From NCBI GenBank assembly GCA_964562405.1, contig CAZLTC010000005.1:3381-67380 (forward strand): a stretch of DNA of 64,000 nt, given 5' to 3'. This DNA is from an uncultured bacterium. GTDB taxonomy: Bacteria > Joyebacterota > Joyebacteria > Joyebacterales > Joyebacteraceae. Made by a program: the position numbers and the translations under genes. Below are positions 35,079 through 60,948 of the stretch, in pieces. The notes under the pieces are model-generated. The model was not told the origin of the DNA. It saw only the letters and a program-made list of their open reading frames with translations, and did not search any database. The first letter of the stretch is position 1. Each line of letters starts with the position of its first letter.

Positions 35079-35110
35079 GGCTCGCAGCAAGAGCGTAAGG
35101 GGGCCGCATA

Positions 35111-35905: not shown

Positions 35906-36104
35906 GCATCGGGCAGGAACGGCCCACGACGCCAGAGCTTGACCGGGCTCAGGCGCTCTGCTAGCCTCTAGTATCATCCTCGGCAGAACTTCGGAATCAA
36001 CCGAGGACGACGCGGCTGTCCGGGCGAGCGCCCGGGCGCACTACCGTTAATGATTCGCGCACAGGCCCAAGTGCGACGGCCTTGCGCCTCCCCAGGAAGG
36101 CCCG

Positions 36105-41441: not shown

Positions 41442-41456
41442 CAGAGGACGGAGACT

Positions 41457-42329
41457 ATGAAGAGGGCCATCCTAGCTGCAAGCGTCGCCTTCCTGTTGGC
41501 GGGTACGGCCGGCGCGAACTTCCTGGAGGTGGAGGTCGGGGCGCGCGCGATGGGTATGGGAGGCGCGTTCGTGGCCGTGGCCGACGATGTCACGGCGCTC
41601 CACTGGAACCCGGCCGGGCTCGCCGATCTCGAAGGCATCCAGGTTTTCGGAATGAGGACGAGCGTCTACAGTGTCGACGGGCTCTCGGAGGACTCGGTCC
41701 TCGCGGGCTACGGGATGGGGCGACGCGGGATTGCGGCCGGCTGGCTCAGGACGGGAGCTCAGGACCTCTATCATGAGGACACGCTGGTTGCGGGCTACGG
41801 GATGAAGACGCCCATCGACGGGCTGTCGGCGGGGCTCTCGGTGAAGCGCTACTCCATCGCCGCTCCCGGTTACGAGTACTACAACGACCCGAACTTCGAC
41901 ACCGGAGGCGACGCGGCATTCTCGGGCGACGTCGGAGTCCTCTACCGCAGTGGGAGCTGGTCGGCCGGGGCCACCTACAGGAACATCGGCGAGCCGACGC
42001 TCCAGCTCATCTCCACCACGCAGGATCCCGACCCGATCGTCGGCGAGTTCAGGGTCGGCGGTTCCTACGTCTTCCGCGAGGTCATGACCATCTCGGGGGA
42101 GTGGAGGGTTCCGAGCGAGGTGCCCTCCTACTACGACAGCGCCGGCAGCTTCAATCTGGGGACCGAGGTGTGGTTCTACGACGTATTCGCGCTGCGGGCG
42201 GGTATGAACAGGGACAGGATCACCGCGGGTCTGGGCCTCAAGGCCGACCCGGTGAGGATCGACGTCGCGCTTCTCTCGGAGCGCAGGATCGGGAGTCTCT
42301 ACAGGCTGTCCGCGATCCTAACCTGGTAA
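41457..42329 (+). CDS. Small (290 aa) outer-membrane beta-barrel of the FadL-like superfamily, possibly a PorP/SprF- or PorQ-like T9SS accessory protein
   Basis: Signal peptide MKRAILAASVAFLLAGTAGA. N-terminal ARAMGMGGAFVAVADDVTALHWNPAGLADL (FadL-type NPA motif). Amphipathic beta-strands; C-terminal ...LYRLSAILTW. 15 nt downstream of the giant CTD protein, a SprB-SprF-like order. Confidence 0.55.
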   Translation: MKRAILAASVAFLLAGTAGANFLEVEVGARAMGMGGAFVAVADDVTALHWNPAGLADLEGIQVFGMRTSVYSVDGLSEDSVLAGYGMGRRGIAAGWLRTGAQDLYHEDTLVAGYGMKTPIDGLSAGLSVKRYSIAAPGYEYYNDPNFDTGGDAAFSGDVGVLYRSGSWSAGATYRNIGEPTLQLISTTQDPDPIVGEFRVGGSYVFREVMTISGEWRVPSEVPSYYDSAGSFNLGTEVWFYDVFALRAGMNRDRITAGLGLKADPVRIDVALLSERRIGSLYRLSAILTW

Positions 42330-42386
42330 CGGAGTCGCGCCCCGGACGCGTGCGGGGCGCTTTGCCACACCGACAAGGAGCATCCA

Positions 42387-43961
42387 GTGATCCGAACGGG
42401 CAGGGAGTGGTCGATCAGGAGAGGAGCGGTCTTCCTTGCCGTTCTTCTGCTAGCGACGACCGCGGGGAGCGCCGCGGCCGTCACCACGCTCGAGGGCTAC
42501 TCCGAGCTCATGACGGAGATCCGTTCGAGTGGCGGAGGGGACCCGAGTTGGGACCTCAACAATCCGAAGCTCTACGCAGAGCTTCGGCTCAAGGCGAGCC
42601 CGTGGCAGGGTGTCGACAGCTTCCTCAAGATCTCCGCCGAGTCGAATCGCTGGACAGACGATATGAAGGACACGAAGTTCTTCTTCCGCGAGGCGCACAT
42701 GCACTACAGGGCGGAGCGCTTCGAGACCTACCTCTTCAGCGGCCAGGACAGGTTCTGGCTCAACGAACCGCTCCTGGAGATCGTGAACACTGGCGTCGTG
42801 AAGAACGACGACTACGGCCCCAGGGCGCAGGGCATCCGCATGGACTTCTGGCAGGTCAAGGGCTTCACGGGCGCGGCGTTCATGAGCGAGAGGAGCGACT
42901 ACATCTCGGCTCCGTGGTCCTCGCTATCCGAGTCCGAGCAGGCGGTCCATCCCGGCTCGACCGTGGGCGACACTCTCTCGAGCAGCACCGACGACTACCG
43001 TGGCCTGCGTCTCACGCGCGACTTCATGAGCAACAGGATCTATCTGGGCGGGACCTACGCGCGCAAGGACTACAGCTCCTCCGCATACAAGGGGGAGTCG
43101 CAGAGCTTCGACGAGGTCACGGCGTTCGATGCGGAGTTCGCGCTGGGAGAAATCATCCCCGTACTGCAGCAGTTCGGGCGCGTTACCTGGGTAAGCGAGT
43201 TCGGGGTCAACTCGTCGGGCTACCTCTGGAACGCCGAGGATCCCAGCAGGAACGGGTTCAAGACGGAGCTTCGCGACATGAGGGTCGGCCCGTTCCGCGT
43301 CAACGGCTCGTTCGAGGAGTACGGGAAGGACTTCTACACGGTCGGACTCGCATCCGGCGACAAGAACAACCTGAACGACTACACGCAGTACTACGGCGAG
43401 GGACACTACCGGCTCCCGACCAAGGCCATCAACCTCAAGGGGTGGATACGGCACGCTGCGCCGAACAATCCCGGAGTCACCAGTTACTCGAACTCCGTGG
43501 GCACGGTCGACGAATGGGGGACCGAGACCTACGTGGAGTTCGTGAACGGCTTCACGGGGAGGGCCGAGTACAAGCTCTACGAGGATGACAACGGAAGGTG
43601 GCCGAACCTGTTCTTCGAGGCCACCGGAGAGAACCGCCTCGTGAAGCTGCGCACCCAGTTCCGTGTGAAGGACATCGGAACCGTCTATGAGCTCACCGCG
43701 TACGGTTTCGAAGCCAACGTCAACCTCACCGACAACTGGCAGTTCTATGCACGTATCCTCAACGTCGATGAGAAGACGGAGTCTCGGCAGACGGCCTTCG
43801 CGCAGATTCGATATCTTGGATGGACCGGCGCCGAGTTCTTCGTCGAGTTCGGCAATCCGGACCAGAGCAATGACCTCGTGAACGACGGGGACTTCGTGCA
43901 GCACGGGAGCGGCAACACGACGGAGCAGGTGTTCAAGGCTTTCCTGAAGATATACTACTAG
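42387..43961 (+). CDS. Outer-membrane beta-barrel protein (porin-like, 524 aa), paralogous to the barrel part of 44065..46206
   Basis: GTG start after AAGGAG; signal peptide ...VFLAVLLLATTAGSAAA. Alternating-hydrophobic strands with many Y/W/G; C-terminal ...EQVFKAFLKIYY (aromatic terminus typical of OMP beta-barrels). Confidence 0.6.
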   Translation: MIRTGREWSIRRGAVFLAVLLLATTAGSAAAVTTLEGYSELMTEIRSSGGGDPSWDLNNPKLYAELRLKASPWQGVDSFLKISAESNRWTDDMKDTKFFFREAHMHYRAERFETYLFSGQDRFWLNEPLLEIVNTGVVKNDDYGPRAQGIRMDFWQVKGFTGAAFMSERSDYISAPWSSLSESEQAVHPGSTVGDTLSSSTDDYRGLRLTRDFMSNRIYLGGTYARKDYSSSAYKGESQSFDEVTAFDAEFALGEIIPVLQQFGRVTWVSEFGVNSSGYLWNAEDPSRNGFKTELRDMRVGPFRVNGSFEEYGKDFYTVGLASGDKNNLNDYTQYYGEGHYRLPTKAINLKGWIRHAAPNNPGVTSYSNSVGTVDEWGTETYVEFVNGFTGRAEYKLYEDDNGRWPNLFFEATGENRLVKLRTQFRVKDIGTVYELTAYGFEANVNLTDNWQFYARILNVDEKTESRQTAFAQIRYLGWTGAEFFVEFGNPDQSNDLVNDGDFVQHGSGNTTEQVFKAFLKIYY

Positions 43962-44064
43962 CGCTGCGCGGGCGCGATTGCCCGCGGGCGGGGCGGCCAC
44001 CGGGACGAGCCCGGCTCGAGGCCAGGACGGGCGGCGAACGAGCCGCGCACACGGAGATGAGACC

Positions 44065-46206
44065 ATGAAGCCAGGACGCTGTTCGGTACTCGCAATGGCC
44101 ACCGCGGCGCTGCTCCTTCTGGGGGTGAGCGCCGCCTTGTCCGACGTGGCCGTCGTGGACGGCGGGATAGAATTCAGCTACGACGACCAGTACGCTGGGA
44201 GCGTCAGCCTCGCGGGCGACTTCAACAACTGGAGCATGGACGCCACGCCGCTCACGCTGGGAGAGGACGGTGTGTGGAGGGTGGTCTACGACCTGGGCCC
44301 GGGCTCGTACGAATACAAGTTCGTCGTCAACGGCTCAGAATGGATAGCCGACCCCGGCAACACGGTAGTCGTGGGCGACTACGGAAACTCCGGTCTGACG
44401 ATCGACGACAGCGGCGAGATAGTTGTCTCGGGGGGCGCCGCGGCGATATCGAACACGACGGTCAACTCGCGCGTGAAGATCAGCGGGTGGTACAGGGCGA
44501 CCTACAACACACAGTCGGATGTGCCGAGCGACCCGCGGTGGAGGCTGAACCGCCCGGAGCACGAGTTCTACATCGGGGTCGATCCGACCGTGAACAAGCA
44601 GGTCTCCGGGAGCGCAATGCTTCATCTCTCGACGGGCTCCGGCGACATCAAGGAGATCCACGCCGACATCTACAGCGGACACCTCACGTTCCAGGGCGGG
44701 CCGTTCAGCGTGATAGGCTGGTACAACGAGGAGGACGTGCAGTTCGACAATCCCCTCGAGTACGTCGGCCACACCGACCTCAGAGGCACGATCCCCGAGG
44801 AGCACATCCCGTTCGGCCGCGGCGCACAGGGCGTGAACCTCAAGACGGCCCCTTGGGGCTTCGACCTCACCGCCGTGTACGCGAACCAGTACGATCTGAA
44901 CATCTACAACAACCCCTCGATCTATGACAACACCGACACCGACCTCCTGGCGGCCCGGCTCAAGAGGCAGGCGGGCCCGGCCATGATCGGCGTGACGTAC
45001 GCGGCACACATCGACGGGTGGTGGATGAACTGGGCCGGCACTAACGAGAGCCCGCAGCTCAGCGAGTACATCGCGGAGAGCGGCAGCACCAGTGACTGGT
45101 TCGAGCTCTCCAACACCGAGCGTCTCATGGGTGTCGACGTCGACCTCCCGCTGGCTTCCGACATGTTCGACGTGAAGGCCGAGTATGCCCTCTATAGTTA
45201 CAACGGGCTGTGGGACATGGGCAACCGCGAGAAGGTCGAGGGAGAGGACTACTCGAACGGGGCCATAGACGTTCCGTTCGGCGACACCGACGGCTGGGTC
45301 GCACGCGGGGTTGTGGACGTCTCCACGCTCAAGCCGCTCGACCTCAAGCTCGAGGCAACACGATTCTCGCTCGACGGCATGGCCTACGATGAGGAGTTCG
45401 TCTCCTTCAGCGGTCCGATCTGGTGGAACGACTTCGGCCCGACGGTTCAGTCCGAGCCGTTCCCGGGAGCGGCGATCCGCCAGTACACGGAGGTCAAGTA
45501 CGCGGGCTCGCCCCTCATCGTCAACGTCTACGGGCCCCTCCCCGAGTACAAGAGCTGGGACTTTGAGCTCGAGGCCGGGTTCGGCCTTGGCATCTTCGAC
45601 ATGGGGCTCGAGTACGACAGGTACAGCTTCGAGGGCACGTTCATAGACTCCCTCGAGTGGCTGATGGGCCCGGGTGACTTCGACGGGTCGAGCCAGCGCA
45701 TCGCGGGAACGGCGAAGGCCGACATCCTTCCCGATAAGTTCGAGGTCGGGTTCGATTTCGAGTCGCTTACCCACGATTTGAACATGGGCAGCGAACTGGA
45801 GGAGGGTATCGGCTGGAGCAAGCCGATCGACACGTTCGAGGCCATTCTGTCAGGGCGCTACGAGTTCATCGAGAACTGGGGCGTGATGGCCAACCTCCGC
45901 CGTATCACGTACAACGATGTTCCGACTGTCTCCGCGTCCAGGGACTCCGTGACGTACGACGACAAGAGCTTCTTCGCCCCCTACGTGGCTCTCGTGTACA
46001 GCCCCAGGCCCAACATCGAGGTCCGGCTGGGATACGGCGTCGACCCGACTAACTACGTAGACACCCCCGTCGAAGGCCGGGGCAACGGGCGTGAGCGCTG
46101 GCGTTCGCAGTACCTCTGGGAGCACAGCGCGTACGACGTCATCGACGCGGAGAAGGCGCTCGAGAACGCCCGCACAATAGGCGTGATGGCCGTCATTTCG
46201 TTCTAG
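44065..46206 (+). CDS. Outer-membrane beta-barrel protein fused to an N-terminal CBM48 / AMPK-beta-type glycogen-binding domain (713 aa)
   Basis: ATG 44065 after GGAG; signal peptide MKPGRCSVLAMATAALLLLGVSAALS. GGIEFSYDDQYAGSVSLAGDFNNWSMDATPLTLGEDGVWRVVYDLGPGSYEYKFVVNGSEWIADPGN matches the CBM48 consensus (F.Y....A..V.LAG.FNNW....PL...DG.W.......G.YEYKF.V.G.W..DP.N). Then about 600 aa of beta-strand-rich sequence ending ...TIGVMAVISF. Confidence 0.65.
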   Translation: MKPGRCSVLAMATAALLLLGVSAALSDVAVVDGGIEFSYDDQYAGSVSLAGDFNNWSMDATPLTLGEDGVWRVVYDLGPGSYEYKFVVNGSEWIADPGNTVVVGDYGNSGLTIDDSGEIVVSGGAAAISNTTVNSRVKISGWYRATYNTQSDVPSDPRWRLNRPEHEFYIGVDPTVNKQVSGSAMLHLSTGSGDIKEIHADIYSGHLTFQGGPFSVIGWYNEEDVQFDNPLEYVGHTDLRGTIPEEHIPFGRGAQGVNLKTAPWGFDLTAVYANQYDLNIYNNPSIYDNTDTDLLAARLKRQAGPAMIGVTYAAHIDGWWMNWAGTNESPQLSEYIAESGSTSDWFELSNTERLMGVDVDLPLASDMFDVKAEYALYSYNGLWDMGNREKVEGEDYSNGAIDVPFGDTDGWVARGVVDVSTLKPLDLKLEATRFSLDGMAYDEEFVSFSGPIWWNDFGPTVQSEPFPGAAIRQYTEVKYAGSPLIVNVYGPLPEYKSWDFELEAGFGLGIFDMGLEYDRYSFEGTFIDSLEWLMGPGDFDGSSQRIAGTAKADILPDKFEVGFDFESLTHDLNMGSELEEGIGWSKPIDTFEAILSGRYEFIENWGVMANLRRITYNDVPTVSASRDSVTYDDKSFFAPYVALVYSPRPNIEVRLGYGVDPTNYVDTPVEGRGNGRERWRSQYLWEHSAYDVIDAEKALENARTIGVMAVISF

Positions 46207-46223
46207 GGAGGCTTGAGACCAAC

Positions 46224-47003
46224 TTGAGACCAAACAGGACTCTCACGATCGGTAGAGTGGCCGCGCTGGTCGCGCTCGCGGCGGTCGCCGCCGGCCTCGT
46301 CTCTTGCGCGGCCGTGCTCGGTGCGATCGAGGACCGTCTGCCTCCGCCCGAGGAGGTGAAGGGTGGGTTCATCTTCCGTTACTACGCTCCCTCGGCGCGC
46401 CAGGTCACCCTCGCCGGCAGCTTCAACAACTGGGGTGGAACGAAGGGCGGCGGGCGATACGACCCAGGGATCGACCCGATGTCGGACCCCGACGGCGACG
46501 GTGTCTGGTCGATCGTGGTCCCGCTTGCCCCCGGCAGATACCAGTACAAGTTCGTGATCGACGGCGGCACACGCTGGGAGGAGGATCCCAACAACCTCGA
46601 CACGGGTACGGAGGACGGGATCGAGAACTCCCTCGTGATCGTCCCGCCTACGGTGAAGTACGCCTACGAGGCCGTCACGGGAACCGTCGTCAGCGGTGAG
46701 ACGCGCCCGGCGGCGGCCGAGGCGGCATCGAGCGTGACGGCGGCCTCGGTCGACGTCGACATCACGGCGGATCTCCCCGACGCGAAGGAGGTCTACGTCG
46801 CCGGAGACTTCAACGACTGGGCGCCCACGCAGTACAAGATGGAGAAGAACGAGGACGGCGTCTTTCACGTCACGCTGACGCTCGCTCCGGGCACATACGA
46901 GTACAAGCTCATCGTCGACGGCACATGGGTCGAAGACCCGGATAACCCGAACACGGTTCCGGACCCGTATGGAGGAGTGAACTCCGTCCTGACGGTGAAG
47001 TAG
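46224..47003 (+). CDS. Surface lipoprotein with two tandem CBM48 glycogen/starch-binding domains (SusE/SusF-like role)
   Basis: TTG start; lipobox ...AAGLVSCAA. Domain 1 GGFIFRYYAPSARQVTLAGSFNNWGGT...DGDGVWSIVVPLAPGRYQYKFVIDGGTRWEEDPNN. Domain 2 VDVDITADLPDAKEVYVAGDFNDWAPTQYKMEKNEDGVFHVTLTLAPGTYEYKLIVDGTWVEDPDNP. Confidence 0.7.
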   Translation: MRPNRTLTIGRVAALVALAAVAAGLVSCAAVLGAIEDRLPPPEEVKGGFIFRYYAPSARQVTLAGSFNNWGGTKGGGRYDPGIDPMSDPDGDGVWSIVVPLAPGRYQYKFVIDGGTRWEEDPNNLDTGTEDGIENSLVIVPPTVKYAYEAVTGTVVSGETRPAAAEAASSVTAASVDVDITADLPDAKEVYVAGDFNDWAPTQYKMEKNEDGVFHVTLTLAPGTYEYKLIVDGTWVEDPDNPNTVPDPYGGVNSVLTVK

Positions 47004-47081
47004 GCTCCGCGGCGGAGCAGGCGCCGTGCCCGACCGGCGGCCCCCAGCGGCGCGCTCGGTCATAGGAGGCCGCGACCGCCC

Positions 47082-48068
47082 ATGCCAGGTCGCAGATCAA
47101 AGGTTCTAGCATCCGCCAAGGTGAGCAACGCCTCCGGCCTCGCAACCGGCCGGGGGCGTGCGCACTTGAGGGACAACCTCGTCTCATACTCATTCCTGGC
47201 GCCGTTCCTCATCATATTCGCCGTCTTCCTGGCGTACCCTGTCTTCTACTCGCTCTACCTCGCTCTCCACAGGGTGCCGTCCGACTCGTTCGACATCTTC
47301 GGAGGGCTGGTCTTCGTCGGGTTCGACAACTTCGCGCGGCTGTTCGCCGACACGCGGTTCTGGTGGTCGGTCCTCATGACCCTCTATTACGCTGCGCTCA
47401 TCATACCCTCAGGCATCGCGGCGTCGCTCGTGCTGGCGCTTCTCTTGAACAACAGACTCAAGGCGGTCGCCGTCTACAGAAGCGCGTTCTTCATGCCCTA
47501 CGTTCTCGACATGCTCGTCGTGGGCATTGTCTGGACGCTCATCTACAGCCCGCACGTGGGCATTCTCGTGAGGATCCTCGAGAGCGTAGGCATCTCGACG
47601 TTCACGGAGAAGGGCTTCCTCGGGATGACCGCATCGGCTATGCCTTCCGTCGTTCTGGCCAACGTGCTCAAGGGCGCCGGCTTCGGCATGATCCTCTACC
47701 TGTCGGCCATACAGAACATCCCGAGGTCGCTATACGAAGCGGCTCAGATAGACGGTGCGACAGCCTGGCAGCAGTTCAGGAGCATCACGCTGCCGCTGGT
47801 CAAGCCCATCACCTTCTTCATGGTCATAATAGGCACCATCAGCGCGCTGAACGCCTTCGCGGAGGTTTACGCGATGACCAGCGGCGGGCCGAACGTTGAC
47901 GTGGGAGGCAAGGCGCTCGGGGCCACGTGGGTCACCGGCTACTACGTCTTCGACACGTTCTACAACCAGTTCAGGCTGGGCTATGCCGCGGCGATGTCGT
48001 ACGTTCTTCTTGCGCTGACACTCGTGATCACGCTCGTGAACAGGCGGTTCTTGAGCACCGAGGCATGA
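47082..48068 (+). CDS. Sugar ABC transporter permease (MalF/UgpA-like)
   Basis: 6 TM; EAA-type loop ...YLSAIQNIPRSLYEAAQIDGATAWQQFRSITLPLVKP is typical of carbohydrate uptake (CUT1) family permeases. Confidence 0.85.
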   Translation: MPGRRSKVLASAKVSNASGLATGRGRAHLRDNLVSYSFLAPFLIIFAVFLAYPVFYSLYLALHRVPSDSFDIFGGLVFVGFDNFARLFADTRFWWSVLMTLYYAALIIPSGIAASLVLALLLNNRLKAVAVYRSAFFMPYVLDMLVVGIVWTLIYSPHVGILVRILESVGISTFTEKGFLGMTASAMPSVVLANVLKGAGFGMILYLSAIQNIPRSLYEAAQIDGATAWQQFRSITLPLVKPITFFMVIIGTISALNAFAEVYAMTSGGPNVDVGGKALGATWVTGYYVFDTFYNQFRLGYAAAMSYVLLALTLVITLVNRRFLSTEA

Positions 48069-48077
48069 CGGCGCCGA

Positions 48078-48923
48078 ATGCGCCAGGAGACCGTGTTGAA
48101 CAGACGTGAAGTCAGCATCATCAGGAGGGTGATCCTCTATGTCGGCCTCACGGTTGCCGCCGCCGTCGTGCTGTTCCCGTTCTTCTGGATGGTCGTGACG
48201 GCCTTCAAGGAGCCGGGCCACGCCTTCACGACCGAGATCCTCCCTGCGCATCCCACGCTGGAGAACTTCCGGCGCGTCCTGTCGGAGTACGGCTTCGCCA
48301 AGTACTTCCTGAACAGCGTCATAGTGGCCACCACGGCCGCGGTCTTCGCGACCCTGTTCGCCACGCTCTCGGGTTACGTCTTCGCCAAGAAGCATTTCTG
48401 GGGAAAGGACCGGGTCTTCGGCTTCCTCCTGGCCTCGCTCATGATCCCGGGCATGATGTACGTGGTTCCTCAGTTCGCCATCATCAACAGACTCGGCTGG
48501 ATGAATACCTACCAGGCGATGATCGTGCCGCACCTGGCCAACGTATTCGGGCTGTTCCTCATGCGGCAGTACATGATGACCATTCCGTCCGAGCTTCTGG
48601 AGGCGGCCAAGATCGACGGGGCCGGAGAGTGGCAGGTCTTCAGGACGATAATGGTGCCTCTCTCGGTGCCGATCATCGCCACTCTGTTCCTGCTGACGTT
48701 CCAGTTCCACTGGAACAACTTCCTGTGGCAACTCATTGTGACGAACGTCGAGCGGCTCTACACCGTCCCGGTGGGCCTGGCGATGTTCAAGAGCGCCCAC
48801 GAGGAACTCTACACGCTCAAGATGGCGGGTTCCTGCATCTCAGTAATACCCATAGCCATCCTCTTCTTCTTTGCGCAGCGCTACTTCATAGAGGGCATGA
48901 CGATGGGTGCCGTCAAAGGTTGA
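48078..48923 (+). CDS. Sugar ABC transporter permease (MalG/UgpE-like)
   Basis: ...LMRQYMMTIPSELLEAAKIDGAGEWQVFRTIMVPLSVP is the EAA motif region of MalG-like permeases. 9 nt after the first permease. Confidence 0.85.
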   Translation: MRQETVLNRREVSIIRRVILYVGLTVAAAVVLFPFFWMVVTAFKEPGHAFTTEILPAHPTLENFRRVLSEYGFAKYFLNSVIVATTAAVFATLFATLSGYVFAKKHFWGKDRVFGFLLASLMIPGMMYVVPQFAIINRLGWMNTYQAMIVPHLANVFGLFLMRQYMMTIPSELLEAAKIDGAGEWQVFRTIMVPLSVPIIATLFLLTFQFHWNNFLWQLIVTNVERLYTVPVGLAMFKSAHEELYTLKMAGSCISVIPIAILFFFAQRYFIEGMTMGAVKG

Positions 48924-48975
48924 TCCATACCGGCGTATCGGTTTCTGAGAGCGCTGACACGAAGGGAGTGTCTTC

Positions 48976-50208
48976 ATGAGAAGGACCGTGATCTGGTTGG
49001 CCGCGGTGGCCGTAGCAGCGGGCCTCGTGGGCGGCTGCGGTGGAGGCAGCGAGCAGGCCACCCTTACCATCTGGCAGACCTACAATGACGAGGAGCATCC
49101 TGTCTTCAAGGAGATCGTCGCACAGTTCGAGGCCGCGCATCCGGGTGTGACGATAGACGTCATTCGTCTGCCGTTCGCGGGTGCCGAACCCAAGATCATG
49201 ACCGCGCTTACGACGAGGACCGAGCCCGACATCGCCAGGGTCGACGTGTCGTTCCTTGCGAAGCTCGCCCACAAGAACGCTCTCCTGGCGCTCGACGAGC
49301 TTGTTCCACAGCCGTTCCTCGGCGACATCCTCCCCGTGGCGCTGGCGAGCTGCCGCTATCGCGGCCAGCTCTGGGGTCTGCCTGACCAGACCAACGGGTT
49401 GTGCCTCTTCTACAATAAGGAGATGTTCCGCGCGGCGGGGCTCGACCCTGAGACGCCGCCCGGGACCTGGGATGAGCTGATCGCCGACGGTAAGAAGCTG
49501 ACGAAGCGCGACAAAGGCGTGTTCGGGCTGGGGCTTTCCAACTCGCTCTGGTGGTCGCTCCCGTTCTTCTACACATATGGAGCGGACCTGCTCTCCGAGG
49601 ACGGAAAGCACTGCCTGCTGAACAGCCCCGAGGGCATCGCCGCGTTCCAACTCAAGGTCGATATGTGCCAGAAGTACGGGATCGAGGGTGGCGCGTGGCG
49701 GGCCGGAGGCATCGTGCACGACCTGGGCTTCCAGAACGGTCGCTACGCGATGATCCTGAACGGGCCCTGGGCGGTGGAGAGCCTCAAGCAGACCGGCATC
49801 GACTTCGGCGTTGCCCCGATCCCGGCCGGCCCGGCCGGTTCCCACACGAACGTCGGCGGCAACGACCTGGTCGTGTTCAGGAGCACCAAACATCCAGACC
49901 TGGCCGCGCAGTTCCTGATGTACGTGGCAAGCGAGGACGTGCAGCGGATGTGGGCCGAGAGGCTGGGACAGATCCCCGTCAACATGAAGGCCTCGGACGT
50001 CATCACGTCAGAGGAGAGGCCTCACCTGGCCGTCTTCGTCGACGTGATGAAGACCGCGATCCCACGTCCGCAGACTCCTTACTATCCCGAGATGGAGAAT
50101 CTCATGAACCCCGAGATGCAGGCGGCCCTCGACAACACCAAGAGCGTCAAAGACGCTCTCGACTCGGCCGCCTCCGAGATAGACAAGCTACTGGCGGAGG
50201 ACAACTGA
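48976..50208 (+). CDS. Extracellular solute-binding lipoprotein (SBP family 1, maltodextrin/oligosaccharide-type) of the ABC transporter
   Basis: Lipobox AAGLVGGCGGG. ...TIWQTYNDEE...PDIARVDVSF...GLPDQTNGLCLFYNKEMF...WDEL is an SBP_bac_1 pattern. No ATPase gene in the cluster. Confidence 0.8.
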   Translation: MRRTVIWLAAVAVAAGLVGGCGGGSEQATLTIWQTYNDEEHPVFKEIVAQFEAAHPGVTIDVIRLPFAGAEPKIMTALTTRTEPDIARVDVSFLAKLAHKNALLALDELVPQPFLGDILPVALASCRYRGQLWGLPDQTNGLCLFYNKEMFRAAGLDPETPPGTWDELIADGKKLTKRDKGVFGLGLSNSLWWSLPFFYTYGADLLSEDGKHCLLNSPEGIAAFQLKVDMCQKYGIEGGAWRAGGIVHDLGFQNGRYAMILNGPWAVESLKQTGIDFGVAPIPAGPAGSHTNVGGNDLVVFRSTKHPDLAAQFLMYVASEDVQRMWAERLGQIPVNMKASDVITSEERPHLAVFVDVMKTAIPRPQTPYYPEMENLMNPEMQAALDNTKSVKDALDSAASEIDKLLAEDN

Positions 50209-50255
50209 CGGCGGGAAGCGCTCGCCGCAGGTCCCCGTCAGGTGGAGGGCACAGC

Positions 50256-51032
50256 ATGAAACGCTCGTATCTGATCCTCGTTTGCGCGGCCGTCGCGCTC
50301 TTCGTCGCGCAGGCGGGAGCCGAGACGCTGGCGACTTGGGTCGATCCCGAGGGCGACGATACAGGGGACGGCGACTACACGTATCCGACCAATCCGGCGT
50401 TCGGTGAAGGCGGAGAGGCCGACATACTCGAGTTCAGCATAGACAAGGACAACGGCGACCTGATCTTCACGTTCAAGATGCGGAATCTCGTCGACCCGTG
50501 GGGAGCCGGAAACCGGCTGACGATGCTCGCCGTGGCGATAGACACACAGGAGGGAGGCGACGCGGAGCTCCGCAGGAACGCCAACGCGATGCTCGATCAT
50601 CCCTCGGAGTATCAGGTGTTCGCCGGTGGCGAGACGGTTCAGGTGATCGATTCCGAATCGGAGGTCGTAGACATCGGAGCGTCGGTCGAGACCGACGTTG
50701 ACAACAACACTATCCGGATCTTGATCCCGATCGCCAAGATCGACGGCGGGGCGTCCGATTGGCGATTCACCGTCGCGGCCGGGCTGCAGGACGACTACGG
50801 ATCCGGCGGTCTTGGGGACTTCAGAGACGTGAAGGAGAAAGCGGAGGAGTGGCGTGGCGGCGGTGGCAACGACCTATCCATCAATCCCAACATCTACGAC
50901 ATCGTCCTGCCTGTACCGCGGAAGATCCTCGGGCTCTTCGGTGGCGGCGGCAGGACCCAGCAGGAGATTCTGGGGGACTACAGCCTGGACGACGGCCGGA
51001 TGGTGGTTCTGCCGGCGCTCGAGATAGAGTAG
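50256..51032 (+). CDS. Secreted stand-alone glucodextranase-C-like domain protein (258 aa)
   Basis: True start is inside listed ORF 49551..51032, whose first 235 aa are out-of-frame read-through of the SBP gene. ATG 50256 after GGTGGAGGG; signal peptide MKRSYLILVCAAVALFVAQAGA. WVDPEGDDTGDGDYTYPTNPAFGEGGEADILEFSI...IRILIP... is similar to the domain at residues about 1120-1400 of the giant protein. Confidence 0.6.
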   Translation: MKRSYLILVCAAVALFVAQAGAETLATWVDPEGDDTGDGDYTYPTNPAFGEGGEADILEFSIDKDNGDLIFTFKMRNLVDPWGAGNRLTMLAVAIDTQEGGDAELRRNANAMLDHPSEYQVFAGGETVQVIDSESEVVDIGASVETDVDNNTIRILIPIAKIDGGASDWRFTVAAGLQDDYGSGGLGDFRDVKEKAEEWRGGGGNDLSINPNIYDIVLPVPRKILGLFGGGGRTQQEILGDYSLDDGRMVVLPALEIE

Positions 51033-51166
51033 CGGACTTGCCGGCGCGCGCATGAAGGCCGGCGTTCGCCTTGCAGGCGTGGAACGGGGGCGGCCCGGAT
51101 GCCGCCCGGCGGGGCGACCGCCGGGCGTGATCTGGCTACGTATCTACAGCCACGGGGAGGATTCGA

Positions 51167-53608
51167 ATGTCACGCGGGATGTTCCTTCTTGCCGCGATCC
51201 TGATGGCCGCGCCCATGGCGGCCCACGCGGTCGACGGCGCCGCTCCCACGGCGGTCGACGGGGGAGTCGAGTTCTCCTTCTACGCACCCGACGCCCGTAC
51301 GGTCAACCTGGCAGGCGAGTTCAACGGCTGGGATCCAGCCGCCACACCCATGACCGACAAGAACGGAGACGGAGTGTGGACGGTCGTGATCCCTCTCCAG
51401 ACGGGCAGGTCGTACGAATACAAGTTCGTGCTGAACGGCGGCGAGTCCTGGAAGGAGGACCCGAACAACCCGGACACCGTCGATGACAACCACGGCGGCG
51501 TGAACACCGTGGTGTCCGTCAATGACGAGGGCAAGGTGATCCTGGGCTATCTCGATGGCGGGGCCAAGGTGTTCGAACCCATCGTGGGGGACCTCCCGTC
51601 CGATGGAACGCCGATCGACGTGGCCATCATCTGGCATCAGCACCAGCCCAAGTATCTGCGCGACCTCAAGACCGGGGAGTACGACGAGCCATGGGTCAGG
51701 ATGCACTCGATCAAGGACTACTACGACATGGTCGCGATCCTCGACGACTACCCGCAGATCCACTTCACGGTCAACCTGACACCCGTGCTCCTCATGCAGA
51801 TGCAGGACATCATCGACGGATACAAGAGTGGTGGGGGCACCGATCGCTACATGCGCGCTACGCTGCAGAGCGCCGCTACGCTCACGACGGAGGACAAGCT
51901 CTTCCTGCTCACGCACTTCTTCAGCGCGCAATGGGACAACATGATCGAGGTGTGGCCGCGCTACTCCGAACTGAAGGCGAAGAAGGGTGGCGACAGCAGA
52001 GAACAGCTGCTGGCCAGCGCGGCTACGTTCAGTGAGCAGGACTGGCGCGACCTGCAGGCGTGGTTCAACCTGGCGTGGTTCGATCCGGACTTCCAGGAGG
52101 GCGACGTCACGCTGCCCGACGGCAGGGTCGTGACGGTCAAGAACTTCATCCAGAAGGGGCGTGGTTTCACCGAGGAGGACAAGCGCAAGATCATCGATAT
52201 CCAGATGGCGATAATGGAGAACGTCGTGGAGAAGCACCGCGAGCTGCAGAACCGCGGGCAGCTCGAGGTCATCACGACGCCCTTCTACCATCCGATACTT
52301 CCTCTTATCTACGACACCGATCTGGCGCGCATAGCCTCTCCGGGTCTTTCGCTTCCGGCTCACAGGTTTCACCGTCCCGAGGACGCCGCCTACCACGCGC
52401 GCGCCGCGGTCGACATGTACGAGCGACTCTTCGGCAGGAAGCCGTCCGGCATGTGGCCGGCCGAGGGCGCGGTGGCACAGGAGATCGTGCCGGTCGTGGC
52501 GGACGCGGGCTTCAGGTGGATGGCATCGGACGACCAGATCCTTGAGCATTCGCTCGAAGGCTCCGTATCCCCCGACAAGCGCTATCAGATGTACTGGGCC
52601 AGGGAGGGCGAGAAGTCCGTGGCGATGATCTTCAGGGACCACAGGCTGTCCGACGACATAGGCTTCAACTTCGGCAAGATGGACGGCGTGCAGGCCGCGA
52701 ACTCGATGATGCGTAGCCTTAGCTCGATACAGCGGCAGTTTCAGAGCGGTGACGGCAGCAACGTCGTCCCCATCATCCTCGATGGAGAGAACGCCTGGGA
52801 GTGGTACAAGCACGACGGCAAGGAGTTCTTTCACTCGTGGTACGACCAGATGAGCAAGGCGTCGTGGATCCACACGGTGACCGTCAACGAGCATCTGGAC
52901 GCTCACGAACCCACGGGGACGCTCTCGCGGCTCTATGCCGGTTCGTGGATAGGGCACAGCTTCGACACCTGGATAGGGGAGCCCGAGGAGAACCAGGCCT
53001 GGGATTACCTCGCACGCGCGCGTGCCGACATGGACAGCTTCGCGCAGGCCGGCGGATACGGCGCGGAGGATCTCAAGCGGGCGATGGACGAGATCTATGC
53101 GGCCGAGGGGAGCGACTGGTTCTGGTGGTACGGCGACGACCAGACCTCGCCACTGGAGGGCTCGTTCGACGAGATCTTCCGAGGGACGCTGTCAAACGCT
53201 TACACGATCCTCGGGGAAGAGCCGCCTTCGTTCCTGTCGGTGAGCATTCTGCGCGGAAGCGCCGCCTCCTCCGGGGGAGGCGTGATGGCGCGGGCGGCGG
53301 ACGCATCTGAAGCGACACTCCTGGCCGGTCCCGTGAAGCTCCCCGATGGTTATCTCTTCAGCATCAAGCGGCCGGACGCGTCGAGCGTCAACGTCGCGGG
53401 CAGCTTCAACGGATGGAGCACCGACGCTGCACCGATGAGCGACGATGACGGCGATGGCGTGTGGACGGCGGTGCTGGCCATCGAGCCCGGGACCTACGAG
53501 TACAAGTTCGCAATTGACGGAGGCACCGTCTGGGTGGCCGACGAGGGCAACCCGGACAGCGTTCCCGATCCGTACGGCGGCGCGAACTCCGTTCTTGTGG
53601 CAAAGTGA
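51167..53608 (+). CDS. Secreted glycoside hydrolase family 57 enzyme (alpha-amylase/amylopullulanase/branching-enzyme class) flanked by N- and C-terminal CBM48 domains
   Basis: Signal peptide MSRGMFLLAAILMAAPMAAHA. CBM48 FSFYAPDARTVNLAGEFNGWDPAATPMTDKNGDGVWTVVIPLQTGRSYEYKFVLNGGESWKEDPNNP. GH57 signature IIWHQHQPKYL...EPWVRMHSIKDYYDMV...FTVNLTPVLL...TTPFYHPILPL. C-terminal CBM48 FSIKRPDASSVNVAGSFNGWSTDAAPMSDDDGDGVWTAVLAIEPGTYEYKFAIDGGTVWVADEGNP. Confidence 0.85.
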   Translation: MSRGMFLLAAILMAAPMAAHAVDGAAPTAVDGGVEFSFYAPDARTVNLAGEFNGWDPAATPMTDKNGDGVWTVVIPLQTGRSYEYKFVLNGGESWKEDPNNPDTVDDNHGGVNTVVSVNDEGKVILGYLDGGAKVFEPIVGDLPSDGTPIDVAIIWHQHQPKYLRDLKTGEYDEPWVRMHSIKDYYDMVAILDDYPQIHFTVNLTPVLLMQMQDIIDGYKSGGGTDRYMRATLQSAATLTTEDKLFLLTHFFSAQWDNMIEVWPRYSELKAKKGGDSREQLLASAATFSEQDWRDLQAWFNLAWFDPDFQEGDVTLPDGRVVTVKNFIQKGRGFTEEDKRKIIDIQMAIMENVVEKHRELQNRGQLEVITTPFYHPILPLIYDTDLARIASPGLSLPAHRFHRPEDAAYHARAAVDMYERLFGRKPSGMWPAEGAVAQEIVPVVADAGFRWMASDDQILEHSLEGSVSPDKRYQMYWAREGEKSVAMIFRDHRLSDDIGFNFGKMDGVQAANSMMRSLSSIQRQFQSGDGSNVVPIILDGENAWEWYKHDGKEFFHSWYDQMSKASWIHTVTVNEHLDAHEPTGTLSRLYAGSWIGHSFDTWIGEPEENQAWDYLARARADMDSFAQAGGYGAEDLKRAMDEIYAAEGSDWFWWYGDDQTSPLEGSFDEIFRGTLSNAYTILGEEPPSFLSVSILRGSAASSGGGVMARAADASEATLLAGPVKLPDGYLFSIKRPDASSVNVAGSFNGWSTDAAPMSDDDGDGVWTAVLAIEPGTYEYKFAIDGGTVWVADEGNPDSVPDPYGGANSVLVAK

Positions 53609-53730
53609 GCTCGAGATTGAGGCGTCACCTTCGGCCGTAGACGAGATGGACGGAGCGACCTTGGCAGCAGCGTGCTGCGTGTCAACGAAGTGAACGTGGA
53701 GACGGCGCGAGGCGGCGCCGTAAGGCGCGA

Positions 53731-56121
53731 ATGAGCATGGACAAGAAGTTGCAGAATCCCTGTCGGATCGAGATAGGTGACCGGACCGGAGAGGAGCCCG
53801 GCCACGGTCTTCCCGCCGTCGGGAAGCGCCGCGGTTTCCAGATCGTCGTCGGCCGCCACGGGTCGCGCGAGTACATCCTGACGAACAAGGAGCGGGCCTA
53901 CTTCGCCGGCGAGACCGGTACGACGAACACCCGCAGCTACGAAGGTCTGATCGTCGACCTGCACAAGTTTCTCGAAGGATGGGATCTGATGCTCGGCGAC
54001 CGACTTCTGTCGTCGTGGGGCGTCAAGAGCGCGTGCGTGCTTCCCCAGAGCATGACCCGGGAGCACATAGTCGAACGGACCACCGAGACGGTCTTCCTCG
54101 CCGATCGCCTCAATCTGCTCATTCTGACCTACAGCACGAGTTATCGGGGCCGCGCTGCATTCGTGCCGCGCATCGACATTCGCAGCATCTGGGAGGAGCG
54201 CCGCCCCGAGTACGACGTCCACTGGGATGAGGACCGCGGGGTTCTCGCTCTGCGCCGGAGCGACCACGGCGAACGCGGGGAGGGTGCCGACTATCCGGTG
54301 TGGGTCGCGGTGGCGTGTGATCGTCCGGTCGTGTTCATACCTGAACCCGGCTACCGGCAGACGACGTACACAAAGGATGCCGCTCGACGGGCGATGGGCT
54401 CGGCCCAGCCGTATGCGCCCGGCCGGCTGGAGTTCAGATTCGAAGGGGACGACCAATTCGCCTCGGGCGCCACGTTCAGCGTCGCCGTGGGGGACGATCT
54501 CGAGGCGACCACGGCGCTGGCGCTCAAGGGAATAGCGGAGGAGTTCTCGCTATATGATCTGAAGATGCGTCGCGTTTCCGATGCGATGGAAAACATGAGC
54601 GTGGCCGCGTACGACCGTGACTACAAGTACTCCCTCATGTGGGCCGCCGCGTCCGTCGATGGCCTGATCATGAACCAGCTCGGGAGAGGTATCTTTGCCG
54701 GCCTGCACTGGTTCCCCAACTACTGGGGCCGGGACACGTTCATAAGTCTCCCCGGCGCGTGCCTGGTGAGGGGCGAGTTCGAGACGGCGAGAGAGATACT
54801 CGAGACGTTCGCGTCCATGCAGGAGCGGGACGATGAGAGTCCGTTCCTCGGACGCATACCGAACCTCGCCATGCCGGGGGAGAAGCACTACAACACCGCG
54901 GATGGGACATGGTGGTTCGTGAGGGAGGTCTACGAGTACCTCCGATACTCGGGCGATCTCGAGTTCGCCCGGAGCATTCTCGGCTGCGTCGAGAGAGCCA
55001 TAGAAGGGGCGGTCAGTAAGCGCGTGGGCGACGACATGCTCGTGAGACACGGACAGGCCGAGACGTGGATGGACGCCGGCGGCGAGGCGAGTCCGCACTC
55101 ACCCAGAGGCGACCGGGCGGTCGAGGTGGAGGCGCTGTGGTACACGGCGCTCCGCGCCGGTGCGGGCGTGGCGGCCGCGGCCGGCAGAAGAAAGTTGGCC
55201 GGGGAGTGGAACAAGATGGCCGACGCCGTCAGGGATTCGTTCCGGCGCCTGTTCTGGGATGAGCGACGGGGCCGGTTGTACGACCACATCGACCCGGACG
55301 GTGCTCCGGACGAGAGGCTGAGGCCTAACCAGCTCTTCGCGATCACCGTTCCGTGGGACGACCTGCTACCTGAGGCGCAGCGCGAGGAGGTCGTCCGGCT
55401 CGTCAGGGAGACGTGCGTGCTCCCGCACGGCGTGGCCTCCCTGGCTCCTAGCGACCCATACTTCCATCCGCGGCACCTCGATCTGGACAGGTACCACTTC
55501 GACGAGGCCTATCACAACGGAGACGTCTGGGTGTGGCTCACCGGTCCGGCCGTCTCGGCCTACCTGCGGCAGGGGCTCGTCGGCCCGGCGTGGGAGCAGA
55601 CGAAGGTGCTCACCGACCTCATGTACGAGGAGGGCGCGGCCGGGACGCTTCCGGAACTCCGCAACGGCGTTCCTCCGGAGGGCGGGGAGAACGTCGCAGG
55701 CGCGGTGTCTCAGGCGTGGAGCCTTGCCGAGTACCTGCGCAACTTCTACCAGGACTACCTCGGTATCGTGCCCGACGTGATGAGCGGCACGCTTCACTTC
55801 AGGCCCGTTCTGCCGAAGGCTCTGTCGTGGGTAACGGCCCGCGCCCGTGTCGGCGGCGGGTGCCTGTCGGTCTTCTGCCGAACGGAGGAAGACGGAAGCG
55901 CCGGGCGGTTTGTTGTTCTGTCGGATCACGGGGCGCCGGCCCTCAACGTGGTCTTCGAGACGCTCGTTCCGCTCACCGACGACGTTCGGACGGAGGCGGT
56001 GAGCGCGACGGCATCGCTCGAGCCCGGCAGCGGCCTCTCGTTCGAGGTCGCGCGAAGCGGGGACGAGTGGTTCGTCGTCGTGTCCCCCGCCAGTCCTGAG
56101 GCGGAGAGCGACGCGCCTTGA
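53731..56121 (+). CDS. Glycogen debranching enzyme (amylo-alpha-1,6-glucosidase, GDE_C/GH133-like, archaeal-bacterial type), cytoplasmic
   Basis: No signal peptide. ...GIFAGLHWFPNYWGRDTFISLPGACLVRGEFETAREIL... and ...AETWMDAGGE...RAVEVEALWY...PNQLFAI...NGDVWVWLTGP are characteristic of the (alpha/alpha)6 GDE_C domain. Confidence 0.8.
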   Translation: MSMDKKLQNPCRIEIGDRTGEEPGHGLPAVGKRRGFQIVVGRHGSREYILTNKERAYFAGETGTTNTRSYEGLIVDLHKFLEGWDLMLGDRLLSSWGVKSACVLPQSMTREHIVERTTETVFLADRLNLLILTYSTSYRGRAAFVPRIDIRSIWEERRPEYDVHWDEDRGVLALRRSDHGERGEGADYPVWVAVACDRPVVFIPEPGYRQTTYTKDAARRAMGSAQPYAPGRLEFRFEGDDQFASGATFSVAVGDDLEATTALALKGIAEEFSLYDLKMRRVSDAMENMSVAAYDRDYKYSLMWAAASVDGLIMNQLGRGIFAGLHWFPNYWGRDTFISLPGACLVRGEFETAREILETFASMQERDDESPFLGRIPNLAMPGEKHYNTADGTWWFVREVYEYLRYSGDLEFARSILGCVERAIEGAVSKRVGDDMLVRHGQAETWMDAGGEASPHSPRGDRAVEVEALWYTALRAGAGVAAAAGRRKLAGEWNKMADAVRDSFRRLFWDERRGRLYDHIDPDGAPDERLRPNQLFAITVPWDDLLPEAQREEVVRLVRETCVLPHGVASLAPSDPYFHPRHLDLDRYHFDEAYHNGDVWVWLTGPAVSAYLRQGLVGPAWEQTKVLTDLMYEEGAAGTLPELRNGVPPEGGENVAGAVSQAWSLAEYLRNFYQDYLGIVPDVMSGTLHFRPVLPKALSWVTARARVGGGCLSVFCRTEEDGSAGRFVVLSDHGAPALNVVFETLVPLTDDVRTEAVSATASLEPGSGLSFEVARSGDEWFVVVSPASPEAESDAP

Positions 56122-58283: not shown

Positions 58284-58373
58284 CGAGACAGAAGGAAGCA
58301 GAGGGGAACCGGCATGATCCGATGCCGGTCCGACATCCCCTGAAGAAAGCGAGAGCCCCGGGAGGTGTCGTGG

Positions 58374-60068: not shown

Positions 60069-60075
60069 GCCGTGG

Positions 60076-60948
60076 ATGGGCGTGATGCGAGCCGTTGGGC
60101 TCTCGGCGCGAGCCATCGGGCTTGCAGTAATCGTCTCGCTGACGGCACCGTCCTCGAGGGCGTGGGCGGCATTCGACGTCCCCGTTCCGCCCGCCAGGGA
60201 CGCGGCTCTCGCGCTGCGCGCGCGGTTGGACTCCGACGTCGGTGATGAGGGATGGGCGGTCGAGCTGTCGGGGTGCGAGCTGTTCGGCCTGCGCGAGACC
60301 AGGGCCTGGCGTGCCGCCCTGGAGTTGCGAGGGGCGCCCCGCGTGTCGTTCGGGGCCTCCTCCTTCGGCGGAGCCGTCTACCGGGAGCGCGTCCTGTCAG
60401 CTGCGGTGAAGAGTGAACTCCCTGGTGGCACCGCCGCACGTCTCGGAGTGAGAGCGTTGGGAATCTCGGCGCAGGGCGTCAGGGAGGTCTGGTCGTCCGC
60501 CATAGACGGGGATGTGACCGTCACGCTCCTGGACCGGCTCCGCCTGTCCTGCGGGTGGGTGAACGTCGGCGGGTCGTCGATCGGAGACTCGCCGGTCGCC
60601 CAGTCCACATCACTTTCCGCCTCGGTCGGAGCGGCCGGGCTCACCATCGTGGGTTCTGTCTCCATCGAGCCCTCATTGCCGCCGTCGTCCTCGCTGGGCG
60701 TGGAACTCGGTGTGGCCCGGCTCCTCAAGGTCCGCGCGGGAGCGGCGACGGAGCCTTCACTGTTCGCAGCAGGTCTGGGCATTGGCGTGCCCTCGACCGG
60801 CTCGAGGCGGTACAGCTGTGTGTTGGACGTCGCGTGGCAGTGGAACCCCGAATTGGGAGTAAGCACGTTTGTCACGATATCCATGTTGCGTAGACCTTCT
60901 CGTGAAGGCCGCCACGCTGGCGTGCGCGACGGTGCTGATGTCCGGTGA
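60076..60948 (+). CDS. Signal-peptide-bearing beta-rich protein (about 290 aa), candidate outer-membrane partner of the preceding T9SS-cargo protein
   Basis: Start at an internal Met of ORF 60037..60948 (MGVMRAVGLSARAIGLAVIVSLTAPSSRAWAA signal peptide). Alternating hydrophobic pattern with G/S-rich strands (LGVELGVARLLKVRAG, YSCVLDVAWQWNPELGVSTFVTIS). No FadL-type NPA motif. Confidence 0.45.
   Translation: MGVMRAVGLSARAIGLAVIVSLTAPSSRAWAAFDVPVPPARDAALALRARLDSDVGDEGWAVELSGCELFGLRETRAWRAALELRGAPRVSFGASSFGGAVYRERVLSAAVKSELPGGTAARLGVRALGISAQGVREVWSSAIDGDVTVTLLDRLRLSCGWVNVGGSSIGDSPVAQSTSLSASVGAAGLTIVGSVSIEPSLPPSSSLGVELGVARLLKVRAGAATEPSLFAAGLGIGVPSTGSRRYSCVLDVAWQWNPELGVSTFVTISMLRRPSREGRHAGVRDGADVR

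Follow-up and report, generated by a model that had tools for sequence, protein, structure and literature searches.

A putative alpha-glucan capture and utilisation locus with a conserved, CBM48-bearing outer-membrane module in an uncultured Joyebacterota bacterium

How might a diderm bacterium bring a starch-like polymer across its outer membrane with a locus that encodes neither SusC nor SusD? The question is raised by a stretch of DNA of 64,000 nucleotides (nt) from an uncultured bacterium of the Joyebacterota (assembly GCA_964562405.1, contig CAZLTC010000005.1, positions 3,381 to 67,380; hereafter the window), in which an unbroken run of + strand open reading frames (ORFs) at 36105-56121 probably forms an operon for the capture and utilisation of an alpha-glucan (starch, glycogen or pullulan-like). 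From sequences and structural models we read this operon as two halves, an importer and enzyme half and an outer-membrane half, with the mechanism of the latter being what we infer with the greater caution. Polysaccharide uptake is poorly understood in diderms outside the Bacteroidota and genome surveys usually score polysaccharide utilisation loci (PULs) by their SusC/SusD pairs, so that Eisenbacteria, Krumholzibacteriota, Latescibacteria, Zixibacteria, WOR-3 and environmental Fibrobacterota and Gemmatimonadota appear to be without dedicated capture systems. What is new here is an outer-membrane module that is kept across phyla inside a glycan-utilisation locus. Full-text searches of the literature found no description of this module or architecture, in agreement with an earlier note on this DNA that had called the architecture undescribed.

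The earlier note had placed the locus at 41457-56121. The genes that it named are present and are co-directional and tightly spaced, as it had held, with gaps of 9-134 nt in a region of ~63-66% GC; the conserved unit begins further upstream, at 36105, with a gene (G0) that the note had missed. The genes of the unit (sizes in amino acids, aa) are as follows.

G0, 36105..41441, + strand: secreted giant protein of 1778 aa; repeats of the Ig-like and CarboxypepD_reg types, Glucodextran_C domain in the middle, sorting-type C-terminal domain (CTD)
G1, 41457..42329, + strand: 290 aa, signal peptide; barrel of the PorV/PorQ/PorP-SprF (FadL-like) superfamily
G2, 42387..43961, + strand: outer-membrane beta-barrel A of 524 aa; uncharacterised rare family, no Pfam match
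G3, 44062..46206, + strand: 714 aa; signal peptide, CBM48/AMPK1_CBM domain, flexible linker and plug-less barrel B
G4, 46224..47003, + strand: lipoprotein of 259 aa with lipobox GLVSC and two CBM48 domains
G5, 47082..48068, + strand: MalF-type (CUT1) ABC permease of 328 aa; BPD_transp_1, E 1e-15
G6, 48078..48923, + strand: MalG-type (CUT1) ABC permease of 281 aa; BPD_transp_1, E 1.4e-18
G7, 48976..50208, + strand: solute-binding lipoprotein of 410 aa; SBP_bac_1, E 2.6e-44, lipobox LVGGC
G8, 50256..51032, + strand: secreted stand-alone Glucodextran_C protein of 258 aa; E 2.2e-36
G9, 51167..53608, + strand: secreted CBM48-GH57-CBM48 enzyme of 813 aa, amylopullulanase type; Glyco_hydro_57, E 4e-61
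G10, 53731..56121, + strand: GDE_C debranching enzyme of 796 aa, E 6e-72; no visible signal peptide

For G3 there is an alternative TTG start at 43978, and the part of G3 that follows its CBM48 is ~580 aa long. A scan for promoters and terminators was uninformative: no sigma-70 promoter was called in the region, and the terminator-like sites in 35000-54900 numbered 5 as against 8.2 in shuffled sequences and all lay within coding sequence, which agrees with an operon. The arrangement of the genes is not due to chance: dozens of loci, spread over several phyla, have it too.

An importer and enzyme half akin to maltodextrin systems

As far as its genes can be read, the use of an alpha-glucan by this locus is well supported. 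Profile searches recovered, each in its place, the CBM48, GH57, Glucodextran_C and GDE_C domains and the CUT1 importer that the earlier note had recognised. The CBM48 and GH57 matches were strong, and CBM48 scored above the Pfam cut-off once in G3 (which also matches AMPK1_CBM), twice in G4 and twice in G9. The CUT1 set comprises two BPD_transp_1 permeases and an SBP_bac_1 protein, G7. Among solved structures that bear a name, G7 comes closest to the acarbose/maltose-binding GacH (E 6e-47) and to maltose-binding proteins, and its best NCBIfam match is MalE, under the cut-off.

The enzymes point in the same direction. The secreted GH57 protein bracketed by CBM48 domains and the cytoplasmic debranching enzyme had both been read in the earlier note, and both are borne out by profile matches. 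The nearest solved structure to G9 is the Aquifex aeolicus GH57 amylopullulanase (E 5e-71), and on alignment G9 keeps all five conserved GH57 regions (HQHQP, GQLEV, WPAEGA, DGENAW and AEGSDW, for HMHQP, GKGSV, WPPEAS with Glu256, DGENCW with Asp352 and AEGSDW in the Aquifex enzyme), including the putative catalytic Glu (in WPAEGA) and Asp (in DGENAW) of the dyad described for the family (PMC12106739). The sole export signal of G9 is of the Sec type, which makes the periplasm its probable place of action. G8 is probably a partner of G9, since related loci fuse Glucodextran_C to the GH57 enzyme: one of them (L018 in our numbering) encodes a CBM48-GH57-Glucodextran_C protein, with Glucodextran_C at the GH57 C-terminus, and in five others (L019, L021, L043, L067 and L070) a single ORF matches both G9 and G8. 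G10 covers the full PF06202 domain with 243 bits against a cut-off of 21 and matches TIGR01561 (archaeal-type putative debranching enzyme) at E 3.6e-54, below that model's cut-off; it is predicted to be a cytoplasmic debranching enzyme of the amylo-alpha-1,6-glucosidase type.

This half of the locus is thus predicted to work like known maltodextrin systems. G9 would cut alpha-1,4 and alpha-1,6 glucans in the periplasm with the help of G8, G7 would pass the oligosaccharides to the G5/G6 permeases, import would be powered by an ATPase encoded elsewhere, and G10 would debranch in the cytoplasm. In maltodextrin ABC clusters of archaea and thermophiles, e.g. that of Pyrococcus/Thermococcus, a GH57 amylopullulanase, often with a Glucodextran_C-type C-terminus, likewise lies beside a CUT1 importer with a lipoprotein as its binding protein; these organisms have no outer membrane, and they are not known to have the G0-G4 module or the decoration with CBM48.

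The outer-membrane module and its conservation

Three barrel genes, G1, G2 and G3, lie within 41457-46206. The earlier note had counted two paralogous barrels, and the kinship of G2 and G3 stands while G1 has to be added to them. AlphaFold2 models built on family alignments gave for G3 (pLDDT 83.8, pTM 0.75) a CBM48 sandwich at about residues 28-114, a low-confidence linker at 123-136 and ~22 long strands, the first barrel strand beginning directly after the disordered linker, and for G2 (pLDDT 84.1) a barrel of ~22-24 strands. When the barrels were compared with known ones, maltoporin, OpdQ, MtrB and usher barrels ranked close behind the leading matches, and G2 drew generic matches only (Z <=15.4). 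By BLASTP G2 and G3 resemble each other at an E of only 0.03, and profile-profile comparison was needed to reveal their relationship (hhalign probability 96.8%, E 2.5e-10, 253 columns); they are remote paralogues whose kinship is visible only at the profile level.

The N-terminal domain of G3 has, besides its profile match, the conserved residues expected of a CBM48 and is predicted to bind glucan. Among the 44 members of the G3 family W57, W72, Y85, K86 and N109 are invariant and W94 nearly so, and W57, K86 and W94 fall within motifs (FNNW, YKF and W) that can be aligned with the glycogen-binding module of AMPK beta. Several related loci (e.g. L027, L028, L030, L036 and L042) encode a barrel B with two N-terminal CBM48 domains instead of one. 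In the literature searched, a proteomics paper on the envelope of Fibrobacter succinogenes has CBM48 on GH9 cellulases and nowhere else.

The family of barrel A is rare: a profile search of 1.84 billion representatives yielded 130 clusters at E <= 0.001. Its longer members carry no other type of carbohydrate-binding module, one of them having a CsgG-like N-domain. We considered the family as a general glycan platform and rejected the idea on these two grounds; because of them, barrel A looks alpha-glucan-specific as well as rare. In one remote relative (L088:6685-10097) barrel A begins with a fused CsgG-like lipoprotein domain, and a separate CBM48 protein of this relative carries such a domain as well.

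G4 is the tandem-CBM48 lipoprotein of the earlier note, with its GLVSC lipobox and two CBM48 domains (AMPK1_CBM E 1.4e-27 over two stretches, with CBM_48 and X25 also matched), and the lipobox cysteine is present in most of its homologues. It may lie at the cell surface, the location that the earlier note had given it. The second CBM48 of G4 also matches the NCBIfam model of a type IX secretion system (T9SS) plug protein (E 5.6e-6, model positions 289-342 of 385). This identity was rejected as a fold-level cross-hit: the match recurs, in the CBM48-like part, in the closest orthologue only (L001:12088-12873), and probably reflects a shared CBM48-like fold. The weak match does hint that a CBM48-like sandwich can plug a large outer-membrane barrel.

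Upstream of the two large barrels, G0 and G1 look like a cargo and anchor pair of type IX secretion. In Pfam, G0 matches Glucodextran_C (E 1.7e-32) and CarboxypepD_reg, weakly Big_1 and, at its C-terminus, weakly FlgD_ig/CHU_C; an NCBIfam profile search found no match in G0 to TIGR04131 (type-B CTD). The start of G1 follows the stop of G0 by 15 nt. G1 scores best as a member of the PorV/PorQ family rather than of PorP/SprF (TIGR03519), with further weak matches to PorV, PorP_SprF, FadL and TraF_2; its N-terminus resembles F. johnsoniae PorV (6h3i_F, E 5.8e-5), and homologues at 69-72% identity carry the NCBI name PorP/SprF. To follow the CTD through related loci, a profile was made from the final 105 residues of G0. 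A CTD-ending ORF lay directly upstream of 48 of the 51 G1-like genes whatever the size of the passenger, which ranged from 383 to ~1850 aa, so that CTD and barrel are conserved while the passenger varies greatly. The CTDs upstream of G1-like genes align right up to the end of the profile (position 102), whereas in 24 of 26 other secreted proteins of the same loci the match ends at positions 83-89, which marks a distinct CTD subclass that goes specifically with a place upstream of G1. In Flavobacterium, genes for type-B CTD cargo are linked to cognate PorP/SprF genes (PMC12618676; PMC9143113), and akin to such pairs, e.g. SprB-SprF of Flavobacterium johnsoniae, the gene for a large CTD protein is followed here by one for a FadL-like barrel of ~290 aa. 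G0 and G1 thus show the adjacency of type-B cargo and anchor, with family scores slightly under the cut-offs; as opposed to the Flavobacterium pairs, the host is not a member of the Bacteroidota and the pair sits inside a glycan-uptake module.

The conservation of the module was measured in a scan of a genome collection, in which the six-frame ORFs of 80 loci were searched with the proteins of the window; ratios are given among the 70 loci with a CBM48-plus-barrel gene, the denominator being the loci with enough flank. A small G4-like CBM48 protein follows the CBM48-barrel in 60/61 loci, barrel A precedes it in 55/60, a PorV-like G1 precedes barrel A in 45/53 and a G0-like protein precedes G1 in 29/44. 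A sugar-binding protein lies within 10 kb in 19/27 loci and permeases in 17/27; in the same set GH57 was found in 8/27, a Glucodextran_C protein in 8/27 and GDE in 6/27. Relatives that bear a source name are from Candidatus Eisenbacteria, the group in which we place the host. A CTD protein followed by a PorV-like barrel, barrel A, the CBM48-barrel B and a CBM48 lipoprotein is the order found in Eisenbacteria, Krumholzibacteriota and Latescibacteria, and also in Fibrobacteraceae/Fibrobacter sp., Gemmatimonas sp. and Zixibacteria, so that the synteny spans at least six phylum-level lineages.

The five-gene module usually adjoins a sugar ABC importer together with GH57 or multi-CBM48 GH13 enzymes. 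Where GH57 is missing, the loci checked have nearby a GH13 amylase with 3-5 CBM48/X25 modules, and in every locus checked the neighbouring enzymes are alpha-glucan-specific. The co-conservation of barrels and lipoprotein with importer and enzyme genes, on which the proposal of the earlier note hung, therefore holds across phyla. Even relatives in which barrel A is only 29-35% identical, or detectable only by profile, keep the order through to the binding protein; in L089, among the most remote, it reads 445-aa CTD protein, 329-aa PorV-like barrel, 543-aa barrel, 541-aa barrel, 155-aa CBM48 protein and binding protein, and L088 has the same order plus its CsgG-like N-domains. In five loci (L056, L059, L061, L065 and L071, WOR-3 included) G2-G3-G4 are kept and no G0-like or PorV-like gene was detected upstream, so the three-gene core can exist without the cargo and anchor pair. 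The most distant full module lies on a 2-Mb contig and has directly upstream of it a gene for a LacI-family protein (L005:5008-6048), a candidate for a regulator that responds to sugar; the locus of the window has no evident regulator.

Readings of the outer-membrane step

In the reading that we favour, G0 would be exported and displayed at the surface via its CTD as a long capture arm, a proposed 'fishing' protein that binds alpha-glucan, and G1 would hold it there as the proposed cognate anchor or shuttle of the CTD, as in type IX type-B cargo/shuttle pairs. G2 and G3 would together provide a TonB-independent passage through the outer membrane for alpha-glucan chains or oligosaccharides, and the CBM48 of G3 together with G4 would take hold of the glucan at the channel and pass it on, the role played in Bacteroides by SusD/E/F.

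Several observations weigh against this picture. The standard topology of a barrel puts the N-terminal CBM48 of G3 in the periplasm, where it is ill-suited to surface capture, and a plug-less 22-strand barrel would need gating. The type IX affiliation falls slightly short on each side, with 20.7 bits for both CHU_C and FlgD_ig at the G0 C-terminus (cut-off 27 for both) and 87.3 bits over the full length of G1 for NF033709, the PorV/PorQ family (cut-off 90), and no type IX core family (SprA/Sov, PorK/L/M/N) was found among the scanned ORFs of the 64-kb window. No surface hydrolase is evident, because none of the enzymes of the locus bears a CTD or a lipobox; either the polymer enters the periplasm or an enzyme reaches the surface by another route. 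Finally, a domain search of the locus found no ATPase gene beside the two permeases and the lipoprotein binding protein, a composition that the earlier note had already remarked on; CUT1 importers usually use shared ATPases encoded elsewhere.

Some of these points could be accommodated if G0-G4 were instead an apparatus for surface display and adhesion, in which G1-G3 merely anchor starch-binding proteins as an 'amylosome-like' adhesin on granules, and small products enter via general porins encoded elsewhere. The likeness of G1 to PorV and PorP/SprF, the sorting CTD of G0 and the dominance of CBM48 modules in the G0-G4 block would all suit such an apparatus, and a G3 CBM48 that faces the periplasm, as is to be expected, is awkward for capture and import and would be less of an embarrassment here. 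We nonetheless consider it unlikely. Two barrels of ~22 strands far exceed the needs of an anchor, even remote relatives have a sugar-binding protein and permeases in tight linkage with the block, and WOR-3 loci keep G2-G3-G4 without G0 and G1, which argues that the barrels have a role independent of the display of G0.

A second alternative takes G3 as a degenerate, SusC-like TonB-dependent transporter and G4 as its SusD/E/F-like partner, the whole being a divergent true Sus-type PUL. A lipoprotein gene does follow the barrel gene directly, as susD follows susC, and PF00593 is weakly detectable in 8 of the 44 G3-family members (best E 1.7e-5). On G3 itself, however, PF00593 reaches 21.1 against a cut-off of 27, and a plug domain (PF07715) was found neither in G3 nor in any of the 44 members, the CBM48 at the N-terminus occupying the place of the plug. 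There is no recognisable TonB box at the N-termini of G2 or G3, and G4 is a tandem of CBM48 domains rather than a TPR protein of the SusD fold. Overall, no plug or TonB-dependent receptor family scored above threshold and no gene of the locus matched any SusD family, in keeping with the earlier note, which had found neither SusC nor SusD homologues. We regard a disguised Sus system as quite improbable.

The comparison with Sus is instructive all the same. As in SusCDEFG of B. thetaiotaomicron and SusCD-type PULs at large, genes for putative starch-binding lipoproteins adjoin that of a large outer-membrane barrel of ~22 strands and CBM-bearing starch enzymes are encoded by neighbour genes that are presumably co-regulated, and both systems occur within the FCB superphylum. 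Unlike Sus, the locus is without plug, recognisable TonB box or SusD fold; it has two paralogous barrels in addition to the PorV-like one and the CTD protein, relies at the inner membrane on a CUT1 ABC importer and has GH57 in place of the GH13 enzyme SusG. In Sus, import across the inner membrane is by an MFS-type transporter.

Since nothing in the locus suggests TonB dependence, the maltose system of E. coli (LamB, MalS, MalE-MalFGK2 and MalQ/MalP/MalZ/GlgX) resembles it in function no less than Sus does. Common to both would be TonB-independent passage of the outer membrane (for the locus, on the reading given above), a probably periplasmic enzyme with a Sec signal only, a MalE-like binding protein with MalF/G-like permeases, and cytoplasmic debranching or trimming. 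As opposed to the E. coli system, the locus has CBM48 on barrel, lipoprotein and enzyme, a giant CTD protein with a PorV-like partner, a binding protein that is a lipoprotein, and an ATPase outside the operon; and no 18-strand barrel of the LamB (maltoporin) family was found in it. With plug, recognisable TonB box, SusD fold and LamB barrel all missing from the locus, it would function like Sus and the LamB-MalS-MalEFGK system and belongs to neither.

The least tenable alternative, which we give hardly any credence, is that the locus serves to build or remodel an alpha-glucan outside the cell or in the periplasm, the barrels being exporters like AlgE, BcsC or PgaA. GH57 does also hold branching enzymes and glucanotransferases, and further upstream the window has a cluster for the biosynthesis of polysaccharide, but PPDK, ferredoxin-type and Sir2 genes (upstream of G0 and unrelated) separate that cluster from the locus. 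Glycosyltransferase, GlgA/GlgC and synthase are absent from the locus and its relatives, and a binding-protein-dependent ABC system marks an importer. With an E of 5e-71 for the amylopullulanase as against 8e-12 for the solved GH57 entry that comes next (7e1y), G9 is far closer to the former, and it reaches only 30 bits with the archaeal branching-enzyme model of NCBIfam. Among the relatives, moreover, there are GH13 amylases with multiple CBMs and one instance of a LacI regulator.

Returning to capture and uptake, a stronger version can be put forward tentatively, namely that G0-G4 are an unrecognised TonB-independent outer-membrane glycan translocon specific to non-Bacteroidota lineages of the FCB group, in which two plug-less barrels resembling TonB-dependent transporters in fold would admit long chains to the periplasm, CBM48 at the barrel N-terminus and on the lipoprotein would serve as gate, plug or binding ratchet, and a pair derived from type IX secretion would form the capture arm. 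We hold this version to be possible, and the chances to be against it; if true, it would be a third solution to glycan uptake at the outer membrane besides SusCD and specific porins. Should the barrels be channels at all, glycans would pass without TonB energy, carbohydrate-binding modules would be built into the outer-membrane proteins themselves, and surface anchoring of the type IX style would be linked to nutrient capture outside the Bacteroidota. The locus provides a compact cross-phylum signature of polysaccharide capture for uncultured FCB lineages (CTD protein, PorV-like barrel, two large barrels, CBM48 lipoprotein and ABC importer) that can be searched for and tested.

Neighbouring genes in the window

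Upstream, a subtilase (Peptidase_S8) at 8419-10227 carries a FlgD_ig C-terminal domain above the Pfam cut-off, and for this reason a sorting domain of the FlgD_ig type appears to be a general tag for secreted proteins in this lineage. It is followed at 10307-31019 by a large envelope-polysaccharide cluster that is not linked to the alpha-glucan locus. The cluster includes a Wza-like exporter of 965 aa with many SLBB repeats, a Wzx-like flippase, Wzy_C and a PGA_cap-like protein, and further a heparinase II/III-like protein, a UDP-GlcNAc 2-epimerase, a glucuronyl C5-epimerase-like protein and a GT4 enzyme, a content that suggests a uronic-acid-containing, heparosan-like polymer.

Downstream, a gene at 56118-58283 starts 4 nt before the stop codon of the GDE gene and encodes a membrane protein of 721 aa with N- and C-terminal transmembrane segments and only a weak MG2 match. 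In many Eisenbacteria-like loci an orthologue comes directly after the alpha-glucan genes, also where GDE is missing (L018-L021, L043), and in L077 the orthologue and the next three genes form a conserved block.

A possible second cargo and anchor pair lies within this block, at 58365-60948. G12 (58365-60068) is a protein of 567 aa with two lamin-tail (LTD) domains and a FlgD_ig/CHU_C-like CTD, and after it comes an ORF of 303 aa (G13, 60037-60948) without a family match and with no detectable similarity to G1. In the L077 orthologue of G12 the CTD reaches the end of the G0-type profile, as do the CTDs upstream of G1. The last gene of the block, at 60869-62890, encodes a protein of 673 aa with a ComEA-like helix-hairpin-helix domain (HHH_3) and a long C-terminal region, and it too is kept downstream in L077.

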